A DNA stretch of 64,000 nt from contig JAOPTX010000017.1 in assembly GCA_051532055.1 (NCBI GenBank), forward strand, positions 1-64,000, given 5' to 3'. Numbering within the stretch: position 1 is the first letter of the stretch; each line of letters begins with the position of its first letter. The notes under the pieces were generated by a model. The model made no database searches, was not told where the DNA came from, and saw only the letters and a list, made by a program, of their open reading frames with translations. Position numbers and translations under genes: made by a program. This DNA is from Fibrobacterales bacterium (GTDB lineage: Bacteria; Fibrobacterota; Fibrobacteria; Fibrobacterales; JAOPTW01). Positions 16,287 through 21,141 of this stretch are shown one piece after another.

Positions 16287-16751
16287 ATGAGACTTTCAGA
16301 ACGACTCATTGAAGATGGTATTATTATTAACTCTGTAAATAGAGAAAAAAATGCCCTCATTGAAGAACTTGTAGATACCCTTGTAAAAGCGTATGGCCTT
16401 GAGCATCGCGACTCTATTCTTGACTCTGTACTTGACCGTGAAAGCAAACTTTCTACAGGCATTGGTTGTGGTCTTGCAGTACCTCACGCTAAGATTGATC
16501 ATATTGATAAAATGTATATGGTAGCGATGAGCGTGAAAGAAGGCGTTGATTTTGAAGCAATTGATAAGGAACCGGTGTTTCTTTTCTTTTTGGTAATTTC
16601 TCCAAGTAGTACCGTAGGGCCCCACATTAAGGCTCTATCATCTATCTCTCGTATAATGGCTGATGCAGAAGTTCGTCAACAGTTGGTTAACGCTGAGTCT
16701 ACAAAAGAGTTCATTGACTTTCTTCTGACCGCCGAAGAAAAATACCTCTAA
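16287..16751 (+). CDS. PTS EIIA domain protein (fructose/nitrogen-regulatory type)
   Basis: RESKLSTGIGCGLAVPHAK phospho-His motif. Confidence 0.88.
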   Translation: MRLSERLIEDGIIINSVNREKNALIEELVDTLVKAYGLEHRDSILDSVLDRESKLSTGIGCGLAVPHAKIDHIDKMYMVAMSVKEGVDFEAIDKEPVFLFFLVISPSSTVGPHIKALSSISRIMADAEVRQQLVNAESTKEFIDFLLTAEEKYL

Positions 16752-16758
16752 ACGTTAC

Positions 16759-16861
16759 TTTTCTATTTTAAACAGTACATTGCTGCGTTATATTCTCCTC
16801 GGCGTACCATGTGTACGAAGTTGTCGGATATGCCTTGCACTGCACTATTTAAAATAGAAAA
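16759..16861. repeat. Structured intergenic hairpin element, copy 1
   Basis: 25 bp terminal inverted repeat TTTTCTATTTTAAACAGTACATTGC with 3 mismatches; core CTGCGTTA..CGTAC..TGTACG..TGCCTTG shared with 20301-20408. Confidence 0.8.
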
Positions 16862-16970
16862 TTGTATTATGTAGCTTACTAGTTCAGTTCGCTTTTCGAG
16901 CCTTTTTGATACCATTATTTGTATGGTTTGCTTTGCAAGCTGTCTCTATCTTAAATCTTTAGGCGGGGTG

Positions 16971-17705
16971 TTACCCTAAACTGATTTGATATTGGGATTG
17001 GGTTATTTCGCCGTTATCGATGCTAATGTAATGAAGAGCAAACAGCCAATCTCCATTTACAATGAAAGAACCGTCTTCTTGGTGAGAGGCGTAAGGGGTG
17101 TGTAAATGGCCTTGGATAAATATATCAGCACTTTCTTCTTTAAGAATTGAGCGGGCAGTAGATTCGTATTCATGCATAAGAGACGTAGTGTCTTTTTGAG
17201 CGTATCTGCTTTTGTTGCCAACGAACCGGGCAAGTCTCATGCCCCAGTCGGGATGGAGAAGCTTAAAAAGAAAATTATTCAATGGACTTCTGATAATTCT
17301 TTTTGCTATTCGATATTTCCAGTCACTCGTTGAAAGCCCATCACCATGCATAAAGCATATTTTTTTATTTCCACTCCACGTGAGATACCGATCAGGGTGG
17401 ACCGTGATACCGAGGTGGGTAGTGAAAAATTGACCGAGATTGAAATCGTGATTGCCGGCAACATAGTGTATCTCAGTTCCTGAGTCAGAAAGAGACTGTA
17501 GAGCAGCGAGTACACGAAAATGATTCTTATTTATATAGTCAGAATACTCCATCCAAAACTCAAAAAAATCTCCGCCTATAATCAGTTGGGAGGCAGTACC
17601 TTTGAGACTTTGAAGAAATGAAATAAGCTGATATTCTCGGTCAGGAACGGTACCGGGCTCATCACATCCCAGATGGACATCAGAGATGAAATAAATAGGC
17701 TTCAT
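16971..17705 (-). CDS. lpxH: UDP-2,3-diacylglucosamine diphosphatase (LpxH-like metallophosphoesterase)
   Basis: FISDVHLG, GDFFEFW, GNHDF, HGD, GHLH; start trimmed to MKPIYF. Confidence 0.8.
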   Translation of the reverse strand: MKPIYFISDVHLGCDEPGTVPDREYQLISFLQSLKGTASQLIIGGDFFEFWMEYSDYINKNHFRVLAALQSLSDSGTEIHYVAGNHDFNLGQFFTTHLGITVHPDRYLTWSGNKKICFMHGDGLSTSDWKYRIAKRIIRSPLNNFLFKLLHPDWGMRLARFVGNKSRYAQKDTTSLMHEYESTARSILKEESADIFIQGHLHTPYASHQEDGSFIVNGDWLFALHYISIDNGEITQSQYQISLG

Positions 17706-17706
17706 A

Positions 17707-18873
17707 TTAGTAGGCGCCTTCGCCTTTAAAAACAACTTTAAAAGTTTTACCAATGAGTTTGAAATCTTCTTTTATGGAGCCGTGGCGAATGTATTGATTG
17801 TCTAGGCGCATCCATTCTTCGAAACCAATATTACTTCTCCCCGATACCTGCCAATGACAGGTGAGCCCAGGCTTGACTGAAAGTCGCATTTGGTGCCATG
17901 GTAGGTATTCTTTTACTTCACGAGGAATTGGTGGTCGCGGCCCTACAATGGACATCTCACCTTTTATTATGTTGATGAGTTGAGGAAGTTCATCAAGACT
18001 ATATTTTCTTATGAATGTTCCAATGGGAGTGACGCGAGGGTCATTTTTTATTTTGAAAACCGGACCATCTGTCTCGTTAAGGCCACTAGATTTTAGCTCA
18101 TTGAGTCGAGCTTCAGCATCGAGGTACATAGAACGAAACTTGATCATATAAAATGTTTTGCCATTAAGACCAACGCGTTCTTGTTTAAAAAATATTGGTC
18201 CCTTGTCGATAAATTTTATGATACCAGAAATAATTAAAAAGAGGGGTAAGAGAATAAGAAGCCCACCCATGGCACCAGAAAAATCTATAGAGCGTTTGAC
18301 GATATTAATAAATGAAAAGCTCCATTTGTTTACTTTGAGTTTAGAGTAACTATAAGGTTCAATGGTAAAGAGACCTTCATTGATGTAATTAAATTTTTCC
18401 ATCAATTTTTCGGTGTTGCTATGTTTCTTACCCGATTGGCCACTAAAGTAAAATGCTTGGAAAAAAGGTTTTTTAGGCTCAAGTTTGGTTCGTACTTTAT
18501 CAAGAAGACCAGCTTCTTCGATATTATGTAGAATCTGTTTCTTGATTTGCTGAATATCTTTTACCGTTTTATTGATAAGAATGATACTCAAGCCAGAGTT
18601 GTTGTGCATAAACCCTTTGATATCAATAATCGAAGAATTGGAAAATACAGTGAGCACAGCGATCTTCCATGCTGTTAAGGTATCATTCGCAATTTTTTCA
18701 AAACCAAAGAGGTCATACTGTTCTGTAGAGATTTGAATGAGGGTAAAGGGCATGTGAGAACGAGTACTCCGGAGAATCTCTTCTTTGAGCCGCATGTCAA
18801 ATAGTTCGGGTGAGTATATCGTTGAGTTGCTATTCTCACCTTCGGTAATGATCTCTTTAATCTCTTCGAGCAT
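17707..18873 (-). CDS. Priming phosphoglycosyl transferase (Bac_transf) with N-terminal degenerate GGDEF-like region
   Basis: KRSIDF, KFRSM, DPRVTPIG, SLDELPQL, VGPRP, KPGLT; N-terminus resembles the start of a GGDEF domain. Confidence 0.9.
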   Translation of the reverse strand: MLEEIKEIITEGENSNSTIYSPELFDMRLKEEILRSTRSHMPFTLIQISTEQYDLFGFEKIANDTLTAWKIAVLTVFSNSSIIDIKGFMHNNSGLSIILINKTVKDIQQIKKQILHNIEEAGLLDKVRTKLEPKKPFFQAFYFSGQSGKKHSNTEKLMEKFNYINEGLFTIEPYSYSKLKVNKWSFSFINIVKRSIDFSGAMGGLLILLPLFLIISGIIKFIDKGPIFFKQERVGLNGKTFYMIKFRSMYLDAEARLNELKSSGLNETDGPVFKIKNDPRVTPIGTFIRKYSLDELPQLINIIKGEMSIVGPRPPIPREVKEYLPWHQMRLSVKPGLTCHWQVSGRSNIGFEEWMRLDNQYIRHGSIKEDFKLIGKTFKVVFKGEGAY

Positions 18874-19023
18874 AGTGCGTCGCTCAGTCCCTGGAATTAA
18901 CCTCTTTGTAACAAATATAGTGAAAAATTGAAATATTTGGCCAATTGAGCACCTTATCTGTGGTGATTTGAAATATGTGAATCAAAATTTGTATTTTTGG
19001 CATAAACATTTATTGAGGCATCT

Positions 19024-20301
19024 ATGAGCATTCGCATTGGTATTATTGGACTAGGTACAGTGGGTTCTGGGACCTACGAAATTCTATCGAGCAAAAGAGA
19101 TTCCTTTATCAAAAACCTTGGGGTGGACCTCGAAGTTACTCTAGTTTGTGCTCGTGAAGATGCTATTTTGTCTGGGTTTGCAGCAAAAGGCATTGCGACA
19201 ACTAAAGATGCACTTGAACTTGTGAATAATGAAAATGTTGATATTGTTATTGAGCTTGCTGGTGGATATGACCTTCCCAAAGAGTGGATTTTAACGGCTC
19301 TTAAAAATAAGAAACATGTCGTTACTGCAAATAAAGCTCTCATTGCCAAGTATGGTGCAGAACTCTTTCCGGTGGCAGAAGCGAATGGTGTTGCGTTGAT
19401 GTTCGAAGCTGCAATTGGTGGCGGGATACCTATCATCAAAGCGATGCAAGAGTCGTTGGTAGGGAATGAATACCAATCGCTGAACTGTATTATTAATGGC
19501 ACCTGTAACTACATTATGACCGAAATGACCCAAAAAGGGTCTGAGTATAAAAAGACCCTGAAAATAGCACAAGAACTTGGGTATGCGGAAGCTGACCCTA
19601 CTTTTGATGTAGAGGGAATTGATTCAGCTCACAAAACAGCTATTCTAGCTTCTATTTGCTCAAAAACATTTGTTGACTTTGAAAAAATGCACATCTCGGG
19701 GATCAGTACTATTGAACCTGTTGATATTGATATCGCAAAAGAGATGGGCTATTGTATCAAACTTCTTGGCACAGTTTGCCAAACTGAGGCTGGTGTCGAC
19801 GCTCGAGTGCACCCGTGTTTAATCTCTTATGATCATCTTCTTGCAGGAGTTAATGGTGTATTGAATGCAGTCTATCTTGAGACTGATAATCTTGGCCCAA
19901 CTCTTCAGACGGGTGCAGGTGCAGGTAAGCTTCCTACAGCATCAGCAGTAGTTGGTGATGTTGTAGATATAGCTCGTCAATTGACTGCTGGTAAAGCGAA
20001 CCCTATCCCAATGGGATACTATAGTCGTGAAAATGAAGCGAAATTAATCTCTATTGATGAGCTTGTTACTAAGTTCTATTTGAGATTTACAGCAAACGAT
20101 GAACCAGGTGTTCTTGCTTCCATCACTTCGGCACTCAGTAAGAAAAATATTTCCGTTGAATCTATTATTCAAAAACCTGTCTCTGAACATGACGCTGCGA
20201 CTATTATTGTAGTAACTCATGAGTGTAGAGAGGCGGATGTGAATGCCGCTGTAGCAAGTCTATCGGGTCTAGAGACCCCTCAAATAATCCGTTTCGCTTA
20301 A
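19024..20301 (+). CDS. hom: Homoserine dehydrogenase with C-terminal ACT domain
   Basis: GLGTVG, VVTANK, EAAIGGGIP, GYAEADPTFDVEG, DEPGVLA. Confidence 0.96.
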   Translation: MSIRIGIIGLGTVGSGTYEILSSKRDSFIKNLGVDLEVTLVCAREDAILSGFAAKGIATTKDALELVNNENVDIVIELAGGYDLPKEWILTALKNKKHVVTANKALIAKYGAELFPVAEANGVALMFEAAIGGGIPIIKAMQESLVGNEYQSLNCIINGTCNYIMTEMTQKGSEYKKTLKIAQELGYAEADPTFDVEGIDSAHKTAILASICSKTFVDFEKMHISGISTIEPVDIDIAKEMGYCIKLLGTVCQTEAGVDARVHPCLISYDHLLAGVNGVLNAVYLETDNLGPTLQTGAGAGKLPTASAVVGDVVDIARQLTAGKANPIPMGYYSRENEAKLISIDELVTKFYLRFTANDEPGVLASITSALSKKNISVESIIQKPVSEHDAATIIVVTHECREADVNAAVASLSGLETPQIIRFA

Positions 20302-20408
20302 TTTTTTCGGAAAGAGGCGTGCATCTACTGCGTTAATTGAAACTTGACGTACAAATGTACGTCTACCTTCCAATTGCCTTGTATCTACACACCTCTTTCC
20401 GAAAAAAT
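20301..20408. repeat. Structured intergenic hairpin element, copy 2
   Basis: Terminal inverted repeat ATTTTTTCGGAAAGAGG; inner GACGTACA-AA-TGTACGTC; same core and spacing as 16759-16861. Confidence 0.8.
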
Positions 20409-20511
20409 GAGTTCATTTTTGTTACTGGATGTACTTCGCACATCTTCGTTTTTTTGGGTTCATGTTAAAATGAGGGGATTGGGGCATAGTATTCATGCAC
20501 TTCGTGGTTCT

Positions 20512-21141
20512 TTAAATGTCTTTTCGGCCTATGGTTGAACAGATGGGGCAGGATTCTCGTTTGTGGCCTCGGGCCATGCAATACTCTCTGCCGTAGAAGA
20601 TGATTTGGAGGTGGAGCTTGTTCCAAAGATCTTCGGGGAAGAGGCGCTTGCAGTCTTTTTCGGTTTGCTCCACATTTTTGCCAATGGAGAGTTTCCAGCG
20701 ATAGGCAAGTCGATGGATGTGGGTGTCTACTGGAAATGCAGGGTAGCCAAAAACCTGGGACATGACAACGGCTGCTGTTTTATGACCCACACCAGGGAGG
20801 GCTTCAAGGTCTTCATAGGTGTCAGGTACTTCACCCCCATGTTCATCAATTAAGATATGGGAGAGGTCATAAATAGCTTTAGATTTTCTTGGTGAGAGGC
20901 CACATGGTCTAATGATTTTTTTGATATCTTCTACCGACTGTTTGGCCATTTTTTGTGGGGTATTGGCCATCCTGAAAAGTGCAGGCGTTACGGTGTTGAC
21001 TCGTGCATCGGTGCATTGAGCAGAGAGGAGTACTGCTATAAGCAGGGTATATGCATCACTATGGTCAAGAGGAATGGGAGTCTCGGGGTAGAGCTCTTCG
21101 AGGGTATCAACTATGTACTGGACTGACTCTTTTTTATTCAT
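20512..21141 (-). CDS. nth: Endonuclease III
   Basis: LLSAQCTD, HhH LPGVGHKTA, VDTHIHR, C-terminal Cys cluster. Confidence 0.95.
   Translation of the reverse strand: MNKKESVQYIVDTLEELYPETPIPLDHSDAYTLLIAVLLSAQCTDARVNTVTPALFRMANTPQKMAKQSVEDIKKIIRPCGLSPRKSKAIYDLSHILIDEHGGEVPDTYEDLEALPGVGHKTAAVVMSQVFGYPAFPVDTHIHRLAYRWKLSIGKNVEQTEKDCKRLFPEDLWNKLHLQIIFYGREYCMARGHKRESCPICSTIGRKDI

Follow-up and report, generated by a model that had tools for sequence, protein, structure and literature searches.

The hairpin repeats known as REP, ERIC and Correia are commonly regarded as selfish DNA peculiar to single lineages. REPs are co-transcribed and have been proposed as mRNA stabilisers, and strand-specific unpaired bases matter in them. 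ERIC (IRU) and Correia (NEMIS) repeats are imperfect palindromes of 100-150 bp that lie in transcribed intergenic regions and fold in mRNA, affecting message stability in an orientation-dependent manner; each is restricted to a single family or genus, with terminal inverted repeats that are conserved and with TA target duplications. Irregular RNase III hairpins of the phage T7 type, with conserved internal loops, are found at message 3' ends, and their stem is protective after processing. REP termini are described in PMC3733652 as a source of stop codons for flanking ORFs, and the repeats treated there are GTAG/CGTC REPs and not the element analyzed here.

The elements analyzed here were first seen in a window of 64,000 nt, a stretch of contig JAOPTX010000017.1 of a Fibrobacterales bacterium, and belong to a family that matches no catalogued RNA or repeat family. 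They share with ERIC and Correia the long imperfect palindrome within a transcription unit (at a Fibrobacter site ahead of a terminator and in rRNA operons) but differ, as judged from general descriptions of those repeats, in having variable termini, no target duplication, an internal conserved part and a cross-phylum distribution. The REP, BIME and REPIN sequences of Enterobacteria and Pseudomonas are likewise dispersed, intergenic imperfect palindromes near gene ends. The unit found here, however, is 95-110 nt long with three helices and two conserved internal loops, compared to 20-40 nt for REP; it has no terminal GTAG/CGTC tag, CTAC being placed inside the hairpin in many copies; it occurs as single asymmetric hairpins and not as the inverted doublets of REPIN; and its core is common to several phyla and archaeal MAGs. 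An earlier reading of the window from its letters only (the sequence-only reading) had offered REP/REPIN-type transposase substrates as one possibility, against which speak the unit of about 100 nt, the missing terminal GTAG and the lack of Y1 transposase matches in the source genome. The E. coli malE-malF REP has TGCG...GCCTTGT in common with the family core, and the family model found no match in 22 kb of REP-bearing E. coli sequence. Unlike the T7-type RNase III hairpins, as these are generally described, the family is chromosomal, multi-copy and present in many phyla, and cleavage is unsupported by the data. The picture of lineage-specific selfish DNA is broken by the cross-phylum core, by the slow divergence of orthologous copies, and by a placement tied to precise gene 3' ends in a single orientation, together with the better predicted fold of the opposite strand.

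Two hairpins behind stop codons in the window

Both hairpins were found where the sequence-only reading had placed them, at or just past stop codons and between convergent ORFs (Table 1). Element 1 begins 8 nt past the stop codon TAA at 16749-16751, and the final base of the TAA at 20299-20301 is base 1 of element 2. The outer arms of the two elements are dissimilar, as had been noticed (sequences in Table 1), and both elements contain the proposed common motif CTGCGTTA-N7-CTYGRCGTAC-N3/4-TGTACG-N13-TGCCTTG, a looser form of which has 2 matches in the window vs. 0.00 expected from 100 shuffles. The covarying pairs named from the two copies (TGC/GCA vs. TAC/GTA; ATATTC/GGATAT vs. AATTGA/CCAATT) were checked and are present, and the conserved TGCGT and GCCTT do lie opposite each other in an internal loop. 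In element 1, the middle stem encloses loop 2 and the apical stem. Hairpin boundaries were determined by stepwise extension; minimum-free-energy folding of the whole region gave spurious long-range pairs. Relative to shuffles, folding of the + strand gave z = -3.8 for element 1 and -9.4 for element 2, and folding of the - strand -6.0 and -10.5, respectively.

Table 1 Coordinates of the two elements, their parts and their neighbouring genes in the window
Feature	Position	Strand	Remark
Gene upstream of element 1: PTS EIIA-2 (PtsN-like), 154 aa	16287..16751	+	
Element 1, whole imperfect palindrome	16759..16861	+	model match 16762-16858, 87 bits
Element 1, outer 5' arm TTTTCTATTTTAAA	16759..16772	+	partner 16848-16861
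Element 1, CTGCGTT, 5' side of internal loop 1	16783..16789	+	opposite GCCTT 16832-16836
Element 1, middle stem	16790..16831	+	ATATTC 16790-16795 with GGATAT 16826-16831
Element 1, apical hairpin CGTAC-CATGT-GTACG	16803..16817	+	
Weak terminator-like hairpin + T run, 26 nt past element 1	16887..16901	+	consensus match only
Convergent gene past element 1: metallophosphoesterase	16971..17753	-	
Gene upstream of element 2: homoserine dehydrogenase with ACT domain, 425 aa	19024..20301	+	
Element 2, whole imperfect palindrome	20301..20408	+	model match 20307-20402, 91.5 bits
Element 2, outer 5' arm TTTTTTCGGAAAGAGG	20302..20317	+	partner 20392-20407
Element 2, CTGCGTT	20328..20334	+	opposite GCCTT 20376-20380
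Element 2, apical hairpin GACGTAC-AAAT-GTACGTC	20346..20363	+	
Convergent gene past element 2: HhH-GPD base-excision glycosylase	20512..21141	-	

A covarying hairpin family spread across phyla

The source genome (G000) and a congener (G001) each contain about 31 copies. An nhmmer search of G000 returned 34 matches (E up to 10), 31 of which had E <= 0.003, and the model search at E <= 1 gave 33 matches in G000 and 31 in G001. The G000 copies are spread over more than 20 contigs. Where copies of the family are adjacent, they form direct tandem repeats about 105 nt apart. Full-length copies were also found in Fibrobacter, Bifidobacterium, Desulfobacterales, Burkholderiales, Bdellovibrio, Sulfurimonas, Lactococcus, Patescibacteria and two archaeal MAGs, and the asymmetric core of about 25 bases occurs in Fibrobacterota, Actinomycetota, Desulfobacterota, Pseudomonadota, Bdellovibrionota, Campylobacterota, Bacillota, Patescibacteria and archaeal MAGs. 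The distribution is patchy, with the element in 29 of 35 genomes of one genus (g6) and in 0 of 14 of another (g4), which shows that cells can dispense with the element.

According to the sequence-only reading, a lack of further copies would have counted against the proposal, and a match to a described Rfam family would have taken away its novelty; copies proved to be numerous and no Rfam match was obtained. Searches of Rfam 15 gave only a tRNA for the whole window at gathering score, only chance-level miRNA and snoRNA rows for both elements at E <= 10, and only two unrelated weak rows for 20 loci of other taxa at E <= 0.1. No description of the core was found in literature searches on REP and REPIN, hairpin repeats of Bifidobacterium, MITE and stem-loop families, or by a term search of PMC2267715.

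Each copy has the architecture of a rod-like hairpin, in which the outer and middle stems are variable in sequence yet covarying, the CGTAC/GTACG apical stem is invariant across copies, and the conserved internal loops are pyrimidine-rich, with TGCGTT opposite GCCTT. In a hand-drawn structure for 22 copies of the source genome, 78.1% of cells are paired vs. 58.7% in shuffles and 29 of 36 pairs show change on both sides, values reached by 0 of 500 shuffles. The corresponding proportions for 95 matches in other taxa are 82.2% and 55.3% (0 of 500 shuffles), the alignment in this case being model-fitted and thus favouring the structure. Selection on a folded structure, as had been proposed from the two copies of the window, is supported by covariation within the genome and across phyla, by compensatory changes and by the low divergence of orthologues.

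For 29 orthologous pairs of copies in G000 and G001, divergence per site ranges from 0.081 in the apical stem to 0.231 in the apical loop and amounts to 0.085 in the asymmetric internal loops. At four-fold degenerate sites of seven flanking genes, 379 of 899 positions differ (0.42); the rate of divergence of orthologous copies is two to five times lower than that of synonymous sites. A total of 39 double compensatory changes were counted between the orthologues, and some orthologous copies have quite different arms, each of which is self-complementary. Empty sites, which the sequence-only reading had suggested looking for in relatives, do exist: a copy on G001:C55 is absent at G000:C92 and another on G001:C25 is absent at G000:C28. 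At one Fibrobacter gene followed through 26 species there is a full, tandem, partial or no copy. Two sites without the element hold a short hairpin built from its outermost arms.

One possible explanation for such a family is a selfish, MITE-like foldback repeat without host function, in which template switching in replication would repair and lengthen the palindromes and keep their stems complementary, and the location at stop codons would reflect the purging by selection of insertions elsewhere. This would fit the copy-specific but paired outer arms, which often run into the stop codon or the last codons (in the copy at G000:C7:216411, the stem takes in 13 nt of the ORF under a lenient pairing rule), as well as palindromes that reach beyond the model ends by a mean of 4.5 nt vs. 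2.6 nt in a swapped-flank control, the differing, self-complementary arms of some orthologous copies, and presence/absence between G000 and G001 and among Fibrobacter species. Nevertheless, template switching would be expected to remove the asymmetric internal loops as well, whereas these loops are the best conserved part (0.085 vs. 0.42), and the strict orientation of the core towards the abutting gene (25 vs. 0 of 31 copies) goes beyond mere tolerance. There is also no consensus of terminal inverted repeats, the outer arms differing from copy to copy; a target-site duplication, sought as a direct repeat of at least 2 nt abutting the palindrome, was found in 0 of 21 copies; and no parent insertion sequence was seen. 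We regard a purely selfish repeat as quite unlikely.

Position at gene ends and the strand predicted to fold better

In 25 of the 31 copies of the source genome, an ORF of 90 or more codons ends on the sense side between -30 and +20 nt from where the element starts; on the antisense side this holds for 0 of 31. The other six copies do not lie flush with a long ORF. The congener shows the same adjacency in 26 (sense) and 3 (antisense) of 31 copies, and other taxa in 60 and 35 of 84 copies, respectively. Upstream genes in G000, where 22 of the 24 listed genes were scanned, are housekeeping genes such as those for PtsN-like EIIA, homoserine dehydrogenase, CheW, the RNR small subunit, PFK and glutamate dehydrogenase, among others; in other taxa, the upstream C-terminal peptides include what we take, by eye, to be the tails of GroES, GroEL, Pgk, GlnS and PurH. 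In Fibrobacter, the order at one orthologous gene is stop codon, element and canonical stem-plus-T-run terminator, and in Gilvimarinus the element directly follows the CCA end of tRNA-Ile in 3 of 3 rRNA operons and is oriented with transcription. One copy (L058), flanked by a tRNA gene on either side, has the antisense direction. BLAST similarity often stops just past the element. The element itself was considered and rejected as an intrinsic terminator: its T runs belong to the 5' arm and pair with A runs of the 3' arm, and the real terminators are further downstream.

The reading that we tentatively prefer, at slightly less than even odds, is that of a gene-end hairpin similar to REP, ERIC and Correia repeats, co-transcribed with the upstream gene and kept by the host. 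Each copy lies behind the coding sequence of an ordinary gene, within its 3' untranslated region, in one orientation to that gene and ahead of the actual terminator wherever one can be seen. It would be transcribed as part of the mRNA of that gene, its long stem possibly protecting or defining the 3' end of the message. We infer that the core is recognised by a conserved nucleic-acid-binding protein, whose site may comprise TGCGTT/GCCTT, CTCGR/CCTTCG and the CGTAC/GTACG apical stem. Copies are held in place long-term by selection and are occasionally gained, lost, tandemly duplicated or replaced, and the family has crossed phylum boundaries. A 3'-UTR RNA motif was one of the options of the sequence-only reading; it is the best fit to position and orientation, but folding is better on the antisense strand, and the form under selection may be RNA or single-stranded DNA.

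The antisense strand is predicted to be more stable in 63 of 64 copies of G000 and G001 (mean difference -10.7 kcal/mol) and in 82 of 91 copies of other taxa (-8.4 kcal/mol); the predicted energies for element 2 are -56.1 (antisense) vs. -43.3 kcal/mol (sense). On the sense strand, A-C/C-A mismatches outnumber G-T/T-G mismatches (about 148 vs. 64 and 146 vs. 101, excluding one invariant T-G column and one conserved A-C column). The A-C excess and the better antisense fold are contrary to what is expected for a hairpin selected as sense RNA. According to GC skew, the sense strand is the G-rich strand in 26 of 32 copies, and the better-folding strand would therefore be the leading-strand template. 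Replication strand was rejected as the primary determinant of orientation, since three of the six GC-skew exceptions still follow gene direction.

The stability of the antisense strand is also consistent with a hairpin in antisense RNA that stops or stabilises transcripts reading in from a convergent downstream gene and thereby shields the abutting gene. By crude ORF calls, about half of the G000 copies are between convergent genes, which would suit this explanation, and about nine are between co-directional genes, which would not. Copies are also found in rRNA spacers and in a groES-groEL spacer (gene names by eye from peptides), where convergent transcription is not expected, and in neither element is the antisense hairpin followed by a U run. 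Contigs from a single metatranscriptome run, which give no transcript ends, strand or expression level and are not counted as evidence, cover both upstream genes and reach into element 2. One of the contigs stops at 16757, just before element 1, and another, with a depth of about 4, ends with adapter at 20355 in the apical loop of element 2. The adapter orientation there is opposite to that of the contigs inside the hom gene and would fit a minus-strand fragment if the library were strand-specific; RNA support for the antisense hairpin is a single contig end, and we consider such a function very unlikely.

A possible single-stranded DNA site and candidate enzymes

Better folding of the antisense strand, the mismatch bias and the placement of that strand as leading-strand template point to another alternative, a single-stranded DNA site on the bottom strand with the logic of attC or of an IS200/IS605 end. 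The asymmetric core would be read by a candidate recombinase, transposase or replication-linked activity that installs the element at gene ends, and surviving copies would be those whose active strand is the template for transcription and leading-strand synthesis and rarely folds there. The patchy occurrence across phyla and domains is compatible with this, as are the gains, losses, tandem copies and remnants at the Fibrobacter locus and the two empty sites with a short hairpin of outermost arms. The position flush with the stop codon and the fixed orientation recall attC sites behind cassette ORFs, which are structured palindromes of 60-140 nt with a fold conserved over sequence; in these the ORF-antisense strand is the better folder, and in our copies it is the one that energy prediction makes more stable. 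The conserved sequence, however, is at the base in attC and in the centre here, and in place of cassette arrays beside an integrase there are scattered single sites that follow housekeeping genes or tRNAs or lie in rRNA spacers. The attC boxes RYYYAAC/GTTRRRY were present at either end in 0 of 21 copies, and membership of the attC class, to which the sequence-only reading had likened the elements, is not supported.

Searches of the source genome, which is 94.4% complete so that absence is unprovable, gave 0 matches for the RAYT/Y1 HUH transposase (PF01797) and 0 for the TnpB zinc ribbon; the Y1_Tnp control search found matches in 6 of 14 reference genomes. RVT_1 (3 matches) and IS110 (2 matches) are encoded in G000, none of them linked to copies. 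A tyrosine recombinase upstream of the C44 copy was present in 0 of 21 g6 genomes (E <= 1e-20), 19 of which have elements, and is therefore not the partner. With no enzyme found, attC boxes and target duplications absent, and half of the GC-skew exceptions following gene direction, a single-stranded DNA site is in our view unlikely; the divergence of the 29 orthologous copies, far below the synonymous level even in the unpaired core, would also be unexpected for a merely selfish site.

The element might also act as a cross-domain "punctuation" of gene ends, active as the bottom DNA strand, installed at gene 3' boundaries and subsequently placed under purifying selection, although we think this improbable. 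A putative, widely available activity would install it at stop codons and tRNA CCA ends, either by insertion into a small hairpin or through fold-back copying, in which the gene tail becomes the outer stem. DNA would then be inserted site-specifically by a new mechanism, and the product would have a domesticated function.

If, as in the co-transcribed hairpin that we prefer, a conserved protein reads the core, the family would constitute a general, so far unrecognised signal at bacterial gene ends, with a bearing on mRNA stability, 3' UTR annotation and the engineering of expression cassettes, while installation at the DNA level would make it mobile DNA of a new, site-specific type. Under either reading the family merits a covariance model in public libraries. 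Cultured carriers of the element exist in Fibrobacter, Bdellovibrio, Bifidobacterium, Ramlibacter and Gilvimarinus.

Two copies in the window and the family to which they belong

The two hairpin elements that a sequence-only reading had located between convergent genes were borne out at their positions (see the feature table), as were their shared motif (2 matches in the window vs. 0.00 expected), their unrelated outer arms and their covarying pairs. Both elements fold far better than shuffled sequence and the minus strand is the better one, with predicted folding energies of -34.8 kcal/mol (minus) vs. -29.0 kcal/mol (plus) for element 1 and -56.1 vs. -43.3 kcal/mol for element 2. In the window scan, element 1 is followed by a weak terminator-like hairpin and none was found past element 2.

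Features of the window and of the compared genomes, with their coordinates
Feature	Position	Strand	Remarks
Element 1, imperfect palindrome	window 16759-16861	+	starts 8 nt past TAA (16749-16751) of PtsN-like EIIA gene
Element 2	window 20301-20408		first base shared with TAA (20299-20301) of homoserine dehydrogenase gene
Convergent gene past element 1			metallophosphoesterase
Convergent gene past element 2			HhH-GPD glycosylase
Covarying core flanks, element 1	window 16784-16785 with 16837
Covarying core flanks, element 2	window 20329-20330 with 20381
Adapter remnants on RNA-library contigs	window 19019-20965		one direction within hom gene (19019-19702), opposite at 20355 and 20529
Tyrosine recombinase	G000:C44:9986-11191		401 aa; Phage_int_SAM_4 and Phage_integrase domains
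Two adjacent reverse-transcriptase-domain ORFs	G000:C39:2805-4665		open frames of 677 and 417 aa
IS110-type transposase genes	G000:C122:1223-1708; C119:152-571
Tandem copies, Bifidobacterium tibiigranuli	L212 3541-3857		three copies
malE-malF spacer, E. coli K-12	L250 5077-5229		first REP is GCCGGATGCGGCGTGAACGCCTTGTCCGGCCTAC

Further copies in the genome of the window (G000; 5.17 Mb, 181 contigs, 39.6% GC) were found by a whole-genome search for the apical CGTAC...GTACG hairpin, and a profile from 16 copies recovers 34 hits up to E = 10, of which 31 have E <= 0.003. The structure, drawn on an alignment (A2) of 22/31 copies, consists of an outer stem (P1), a 3x3 internal loop between G-C and T-G pairs with a bulged T, an 8-bp middle stem (P2), a second loop of CTC opposite CTTCG, and an apical stem (P3) of 7 bp closed by a loop of 4-6 nt. 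Pairing holds in 78.1% of cells of A2 vs. 58.7% in shuffles (0/500 reach the observed values), 29/36 pairs have both-sided changes, and pairing falls to 30-44% once the partner is shifted by 1-3 columns. A covariance-model scan and a comparison with Rfam had been proposed as checks: the model built from A2 (R1) has 33 matches at E <= 1 in G000 and 31 in G001, the only other species of the genus, and no Rfam family matches the element.

In several phyla the two bases before CGTT covary with the base after GCCT (columns 28-30 and 85-87 of alignment A4), with TG, GG or CG accompanying T, TT accompanying C, and GT accompanying A. On neither strand are these combinations Watson-Crick or wobble pairs, and they could reflect a non-canonical contact or old subfamilies. 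As a separate observation, the adapter remnants near element 2 would, if the library was strand-specific, mark minus-strand RNA that runs from the convergent gene into the element and stops in its apical loop, as judged from single contigs at a depth of about 4.

Gene ends and conservation in place

An ORF of at least 90 codons ends at -30 to +20 nt from the element start for 25/31 copies in G000 on the sense side and 0/31 on the other, and all 25 adjoining stops lie between -10 and +11; the same count in G001 is 26/31 sense and 3/31 antisense. Other taxa show a sense ORF (>= 35 open codons) ending within 18 nt in 60/84 copies and an antisense one in 35/84, the latter being raised in part by copies that span the entire distance from one convergent stop codon to the other. 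The stop codon is often reached by the palindrome or lies inside it, the distance from stop to first paired base being -13 to +10 (median -2, 21 copies, lenient pairing rule), and under strict pairing the stems run on average 4.5 nt past the model ends vs. 2.6 nt with swapped flanks. As the element consensus contains GTAA...TTAC in Desulfobacterales and ACTGA in Bifidobacterium, the element there provides the stop codon.

The genes 5' of the G000 copies are ordinary (22/24 genes scanned) and include PTS EIIA, homoserine dehydrogenase, response regulators, CheW, formyltransferase, RNR small chain, PFK, glutamate dehydrogenase, a MiaB-like enzyme and an endonuclease IV-like enzyme, among others; C-terminal peptides judged by eye in other taxa belong to GroES, GroEL, Pgk, GlnS and PurH. 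In Gilvimarinus, 3/3 copies lie in rRNA operons directly after the CCA of tRNA-Ile and along transcription. A different copy (L058), flanked by two tRNA genes, faces the other way. The reading that we tentatively prefer is a gene-end hairpin of the REP/ERIC/Correia kind that is co-transcribed as part of the 3' UTR, that the host retains and whose conserved core is a probable protein-binding site. Its role at the RNA level would be protection or processing of the 3' end, as position, orientation and precedent suggest.

The region downstream of one orthologous gene was compared in 26 Fibrobacter species. In the 6/26 with model matches, the stop codon is followed by the element and then by a textbook terminator (GC stem and T run), so that the element lies upstream of the terminator. 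An identity of the elements with terminators was rejected on their folding and on this separate terminator. Depending on the species, the same site is held by two element types with unrelated arms: both stand in tandem in one species, the 3' half of the other type lies past the terminator in two, only a 3' arm is left in two, two have a mini-hairpin (AAGAC-TTC-GTCTT) built of the outermost arm bases, and the remaining species are without any element. Two further small GC-rich hairpin repeats, around CCCCGCGAAGGCGGGG and around GATTCCGGCTCAAGGCCGGAATGAC, occur in that 3' UTR in different species (loci L223, L225, L227, L230, L239, L243; and L234, L236, L238, L242). Several hairpin families have accumulated in this spacer.

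Within the genus, 29/30 queried G000 copies have a counterpart at the orthologous site of G001, with 86% identity overall. Double compensatory changes number 39 over the 29 pairs and pair-breaking differences 116, part of which come from three pairs that align poorly (58-66% identity).

Divergence of element segments over the 29 G000/G001 pairs
Segment	Sites differing	Fraction
Outer stem (P1)	165/1038	0.159
Loop-1 core and flanking pairs	42/493	0.085
Middle stem (P2)	77/462	0.167
Loop 2	35/203	0.172
Apical stem (P3)	33/406	0.081
Apical loop	30/130	0.231

In seven genes near the window's elements, 379/899 four-fold sites (0.42) differ between the two species. Since the divergence of the element is below this value, the whole element, above all its unpaired core, is under constraint in place, a finding that sits poorly with a purely selfish repeat; a foldback repeat without host function appears improbable.

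Empty sites in relatives, which the sequence-only reading had suggested looking for, do occur. A copy on contig C55 of G001 is absent at C92 of G000, where a short hairpin (CATTAA-TTGTGT-TTAATG), made of the gene tail and its inverted copy, has its outermost arm in common with the filled site. This would fit insertion into a small hairpin as well as deletion leaving the stem base. One more G001 copy is without a G000 counterpart and one G000 copy without a G001 match.

Distribution across taxa

Among 40 relatives, R1 has matches in G001 and in 19/21 genomes of another genus, g6 (1-6 weak matches each), and none in 11 genomes of genus g4 or in the remaining genera. Of 151 sampled genomes of the phylum, 35 have a match at E <= 1e-4 (29/35 in g6, 0/14 in g4, single matches in five other genera). 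A 20-base core pattern recovered at least 119 stretches in the species collection vs. about 5 by chance, by our own estimate. By record title, the 80 matches listed include Fibrobacter, Bifidobacterium, Coriobacteriales, Desulfobacterales/Desulfobulbia, Burkholderiales, Sulfurimonas, Bdellovibrio, Lactococcus, Gemmatimonadaceae, Acutalibacteraceae, a Patescibacteria MAG and two archaeal MAGs, and R1 has 93 matches, mostly full length, in these 80 loci. Five named genomes hold 9, 5, 6, 3 and 3 copies. Carriers available in culture include Fibrobacter succinogenes, Bdellovibrio bacteriovorus, a Bifidobacterium, Ramlibacter monticola and Gilvimarinus agarilyticus. The pattern imposed CGTT, CGTAC, GTACG and GCCT, so that the cross-taxon conservation of those letters is ascertainment; it did not prescribe the stems, the segments CTCR and CCTTCG or the closing A-C pair. 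Across 95 matches in other taxa, from 90 sources (three loci omitted against double counting), 82.2% of cells pair vs. 55.3% in shuffles (0/500), in an alignment fitted to the model.

The element belongs to a known class, the structured intergenic repeats, and we found no description of it in the literature searched, as far as this was accessible. Unusual are its cross-phylum core, its conservation in place and its strand asymmetry.

Several copies have features of their own. The three tandem copies in Bifidobacterium tibiigranuli occupy the entire 353-nt gap between convergent genes and are the only model matches in that genome. In Desulfobacterales-type copies (L114, L053, L080, L038, L084, L100, L093) the repeat runs about 60 nt past the hairpin (GTTACAAGTCCTGTGGTTATTGATA...GGGGTGAGTAGTTACC), and two such copies have, nested in the 5' arm, an insert of some 42 nt that is itself a small hairpin. 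The archaeal (L035, L069) and Patescibacteria (L043) copies resemble one another more than other bacterial copies and have in common CTCGCGTAC...GTACGCCAC and similar middle-stem letters, a sequence likeness that hints at transfer between these tiny-genome organisms.

Strand asymmetry and candidate enzymes

The antisense strand is predicted to be the more stable one in 63/64 G000/G001 copies (mean -36.7 vs. -26.0 kcal/mol) and in 82/91 copies of other taxa (-48.1 vs. -39.6 kcal/mol), counts that overstate independence because the copies are related. The energy gap arises in part because the antisense-strand loops are purine-rich. On the sense strand, A-C/C-A outnumber G-T/T-G by 180 vs. 123 in G000/G001 and 211 vs. 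193 in other taxa, or by about 148 vs. 64 and 146 vs. 101 when an invariant T-G column and a conserved A-C column are left out. This strand is pyrimidine-rich (C/G 1.46, C > G in 64/64 copies of G000/G001; C/G 1.27, C > G in 93/95 in other taxa). It is the G-rich genome strand in 26/32 cases, at a GC skew near +/-0.12, yet C exceeds G inside the copies. An exposed DNA strand usually shows a C-to-T bias; the asymmetry has the same direction in separate phyla and is opposite to that bias. An RNA structure acting in antisense is very doubtful as an explanation of the element. The asymmetry keeps alive a DNA-level role resembling that of attC sites, which we consider unlikely, and attC R boxes were found in 0/21 copies.

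Target duplications were likewise seen in 0/21 copies, a Y1/RAYT gene was absent from the search results for G000, and no TnpB zinc ribbon was found in that genome. The tyrosine recombinase on C44 is followed by a copy of the element and is conserved in G001 at 95% identity; it was not found in the 21 g6 genomes, 19/21 of which carry elements, nor in Fibrobacter. The first REP of the E. coli malE-malF spacer and the loop-1 core of the element have TGCG and GCCTTGT in common, in identical order, and resemble each other in their G-T/mismatch pattern; the element model gives this REP no score, and the likeness may be by chance. G000 also encodes the reverse-transcriptase-domain ORFs and the two IS110-type transposase genes listed in the feature table. 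Its contigs show a very strong GC skew (about +/-0.11 to 0.15 over spans of 25-50 kb, e.g. the window +/-25 kb), which should permit mapping of origin and terminus in the draft genome.
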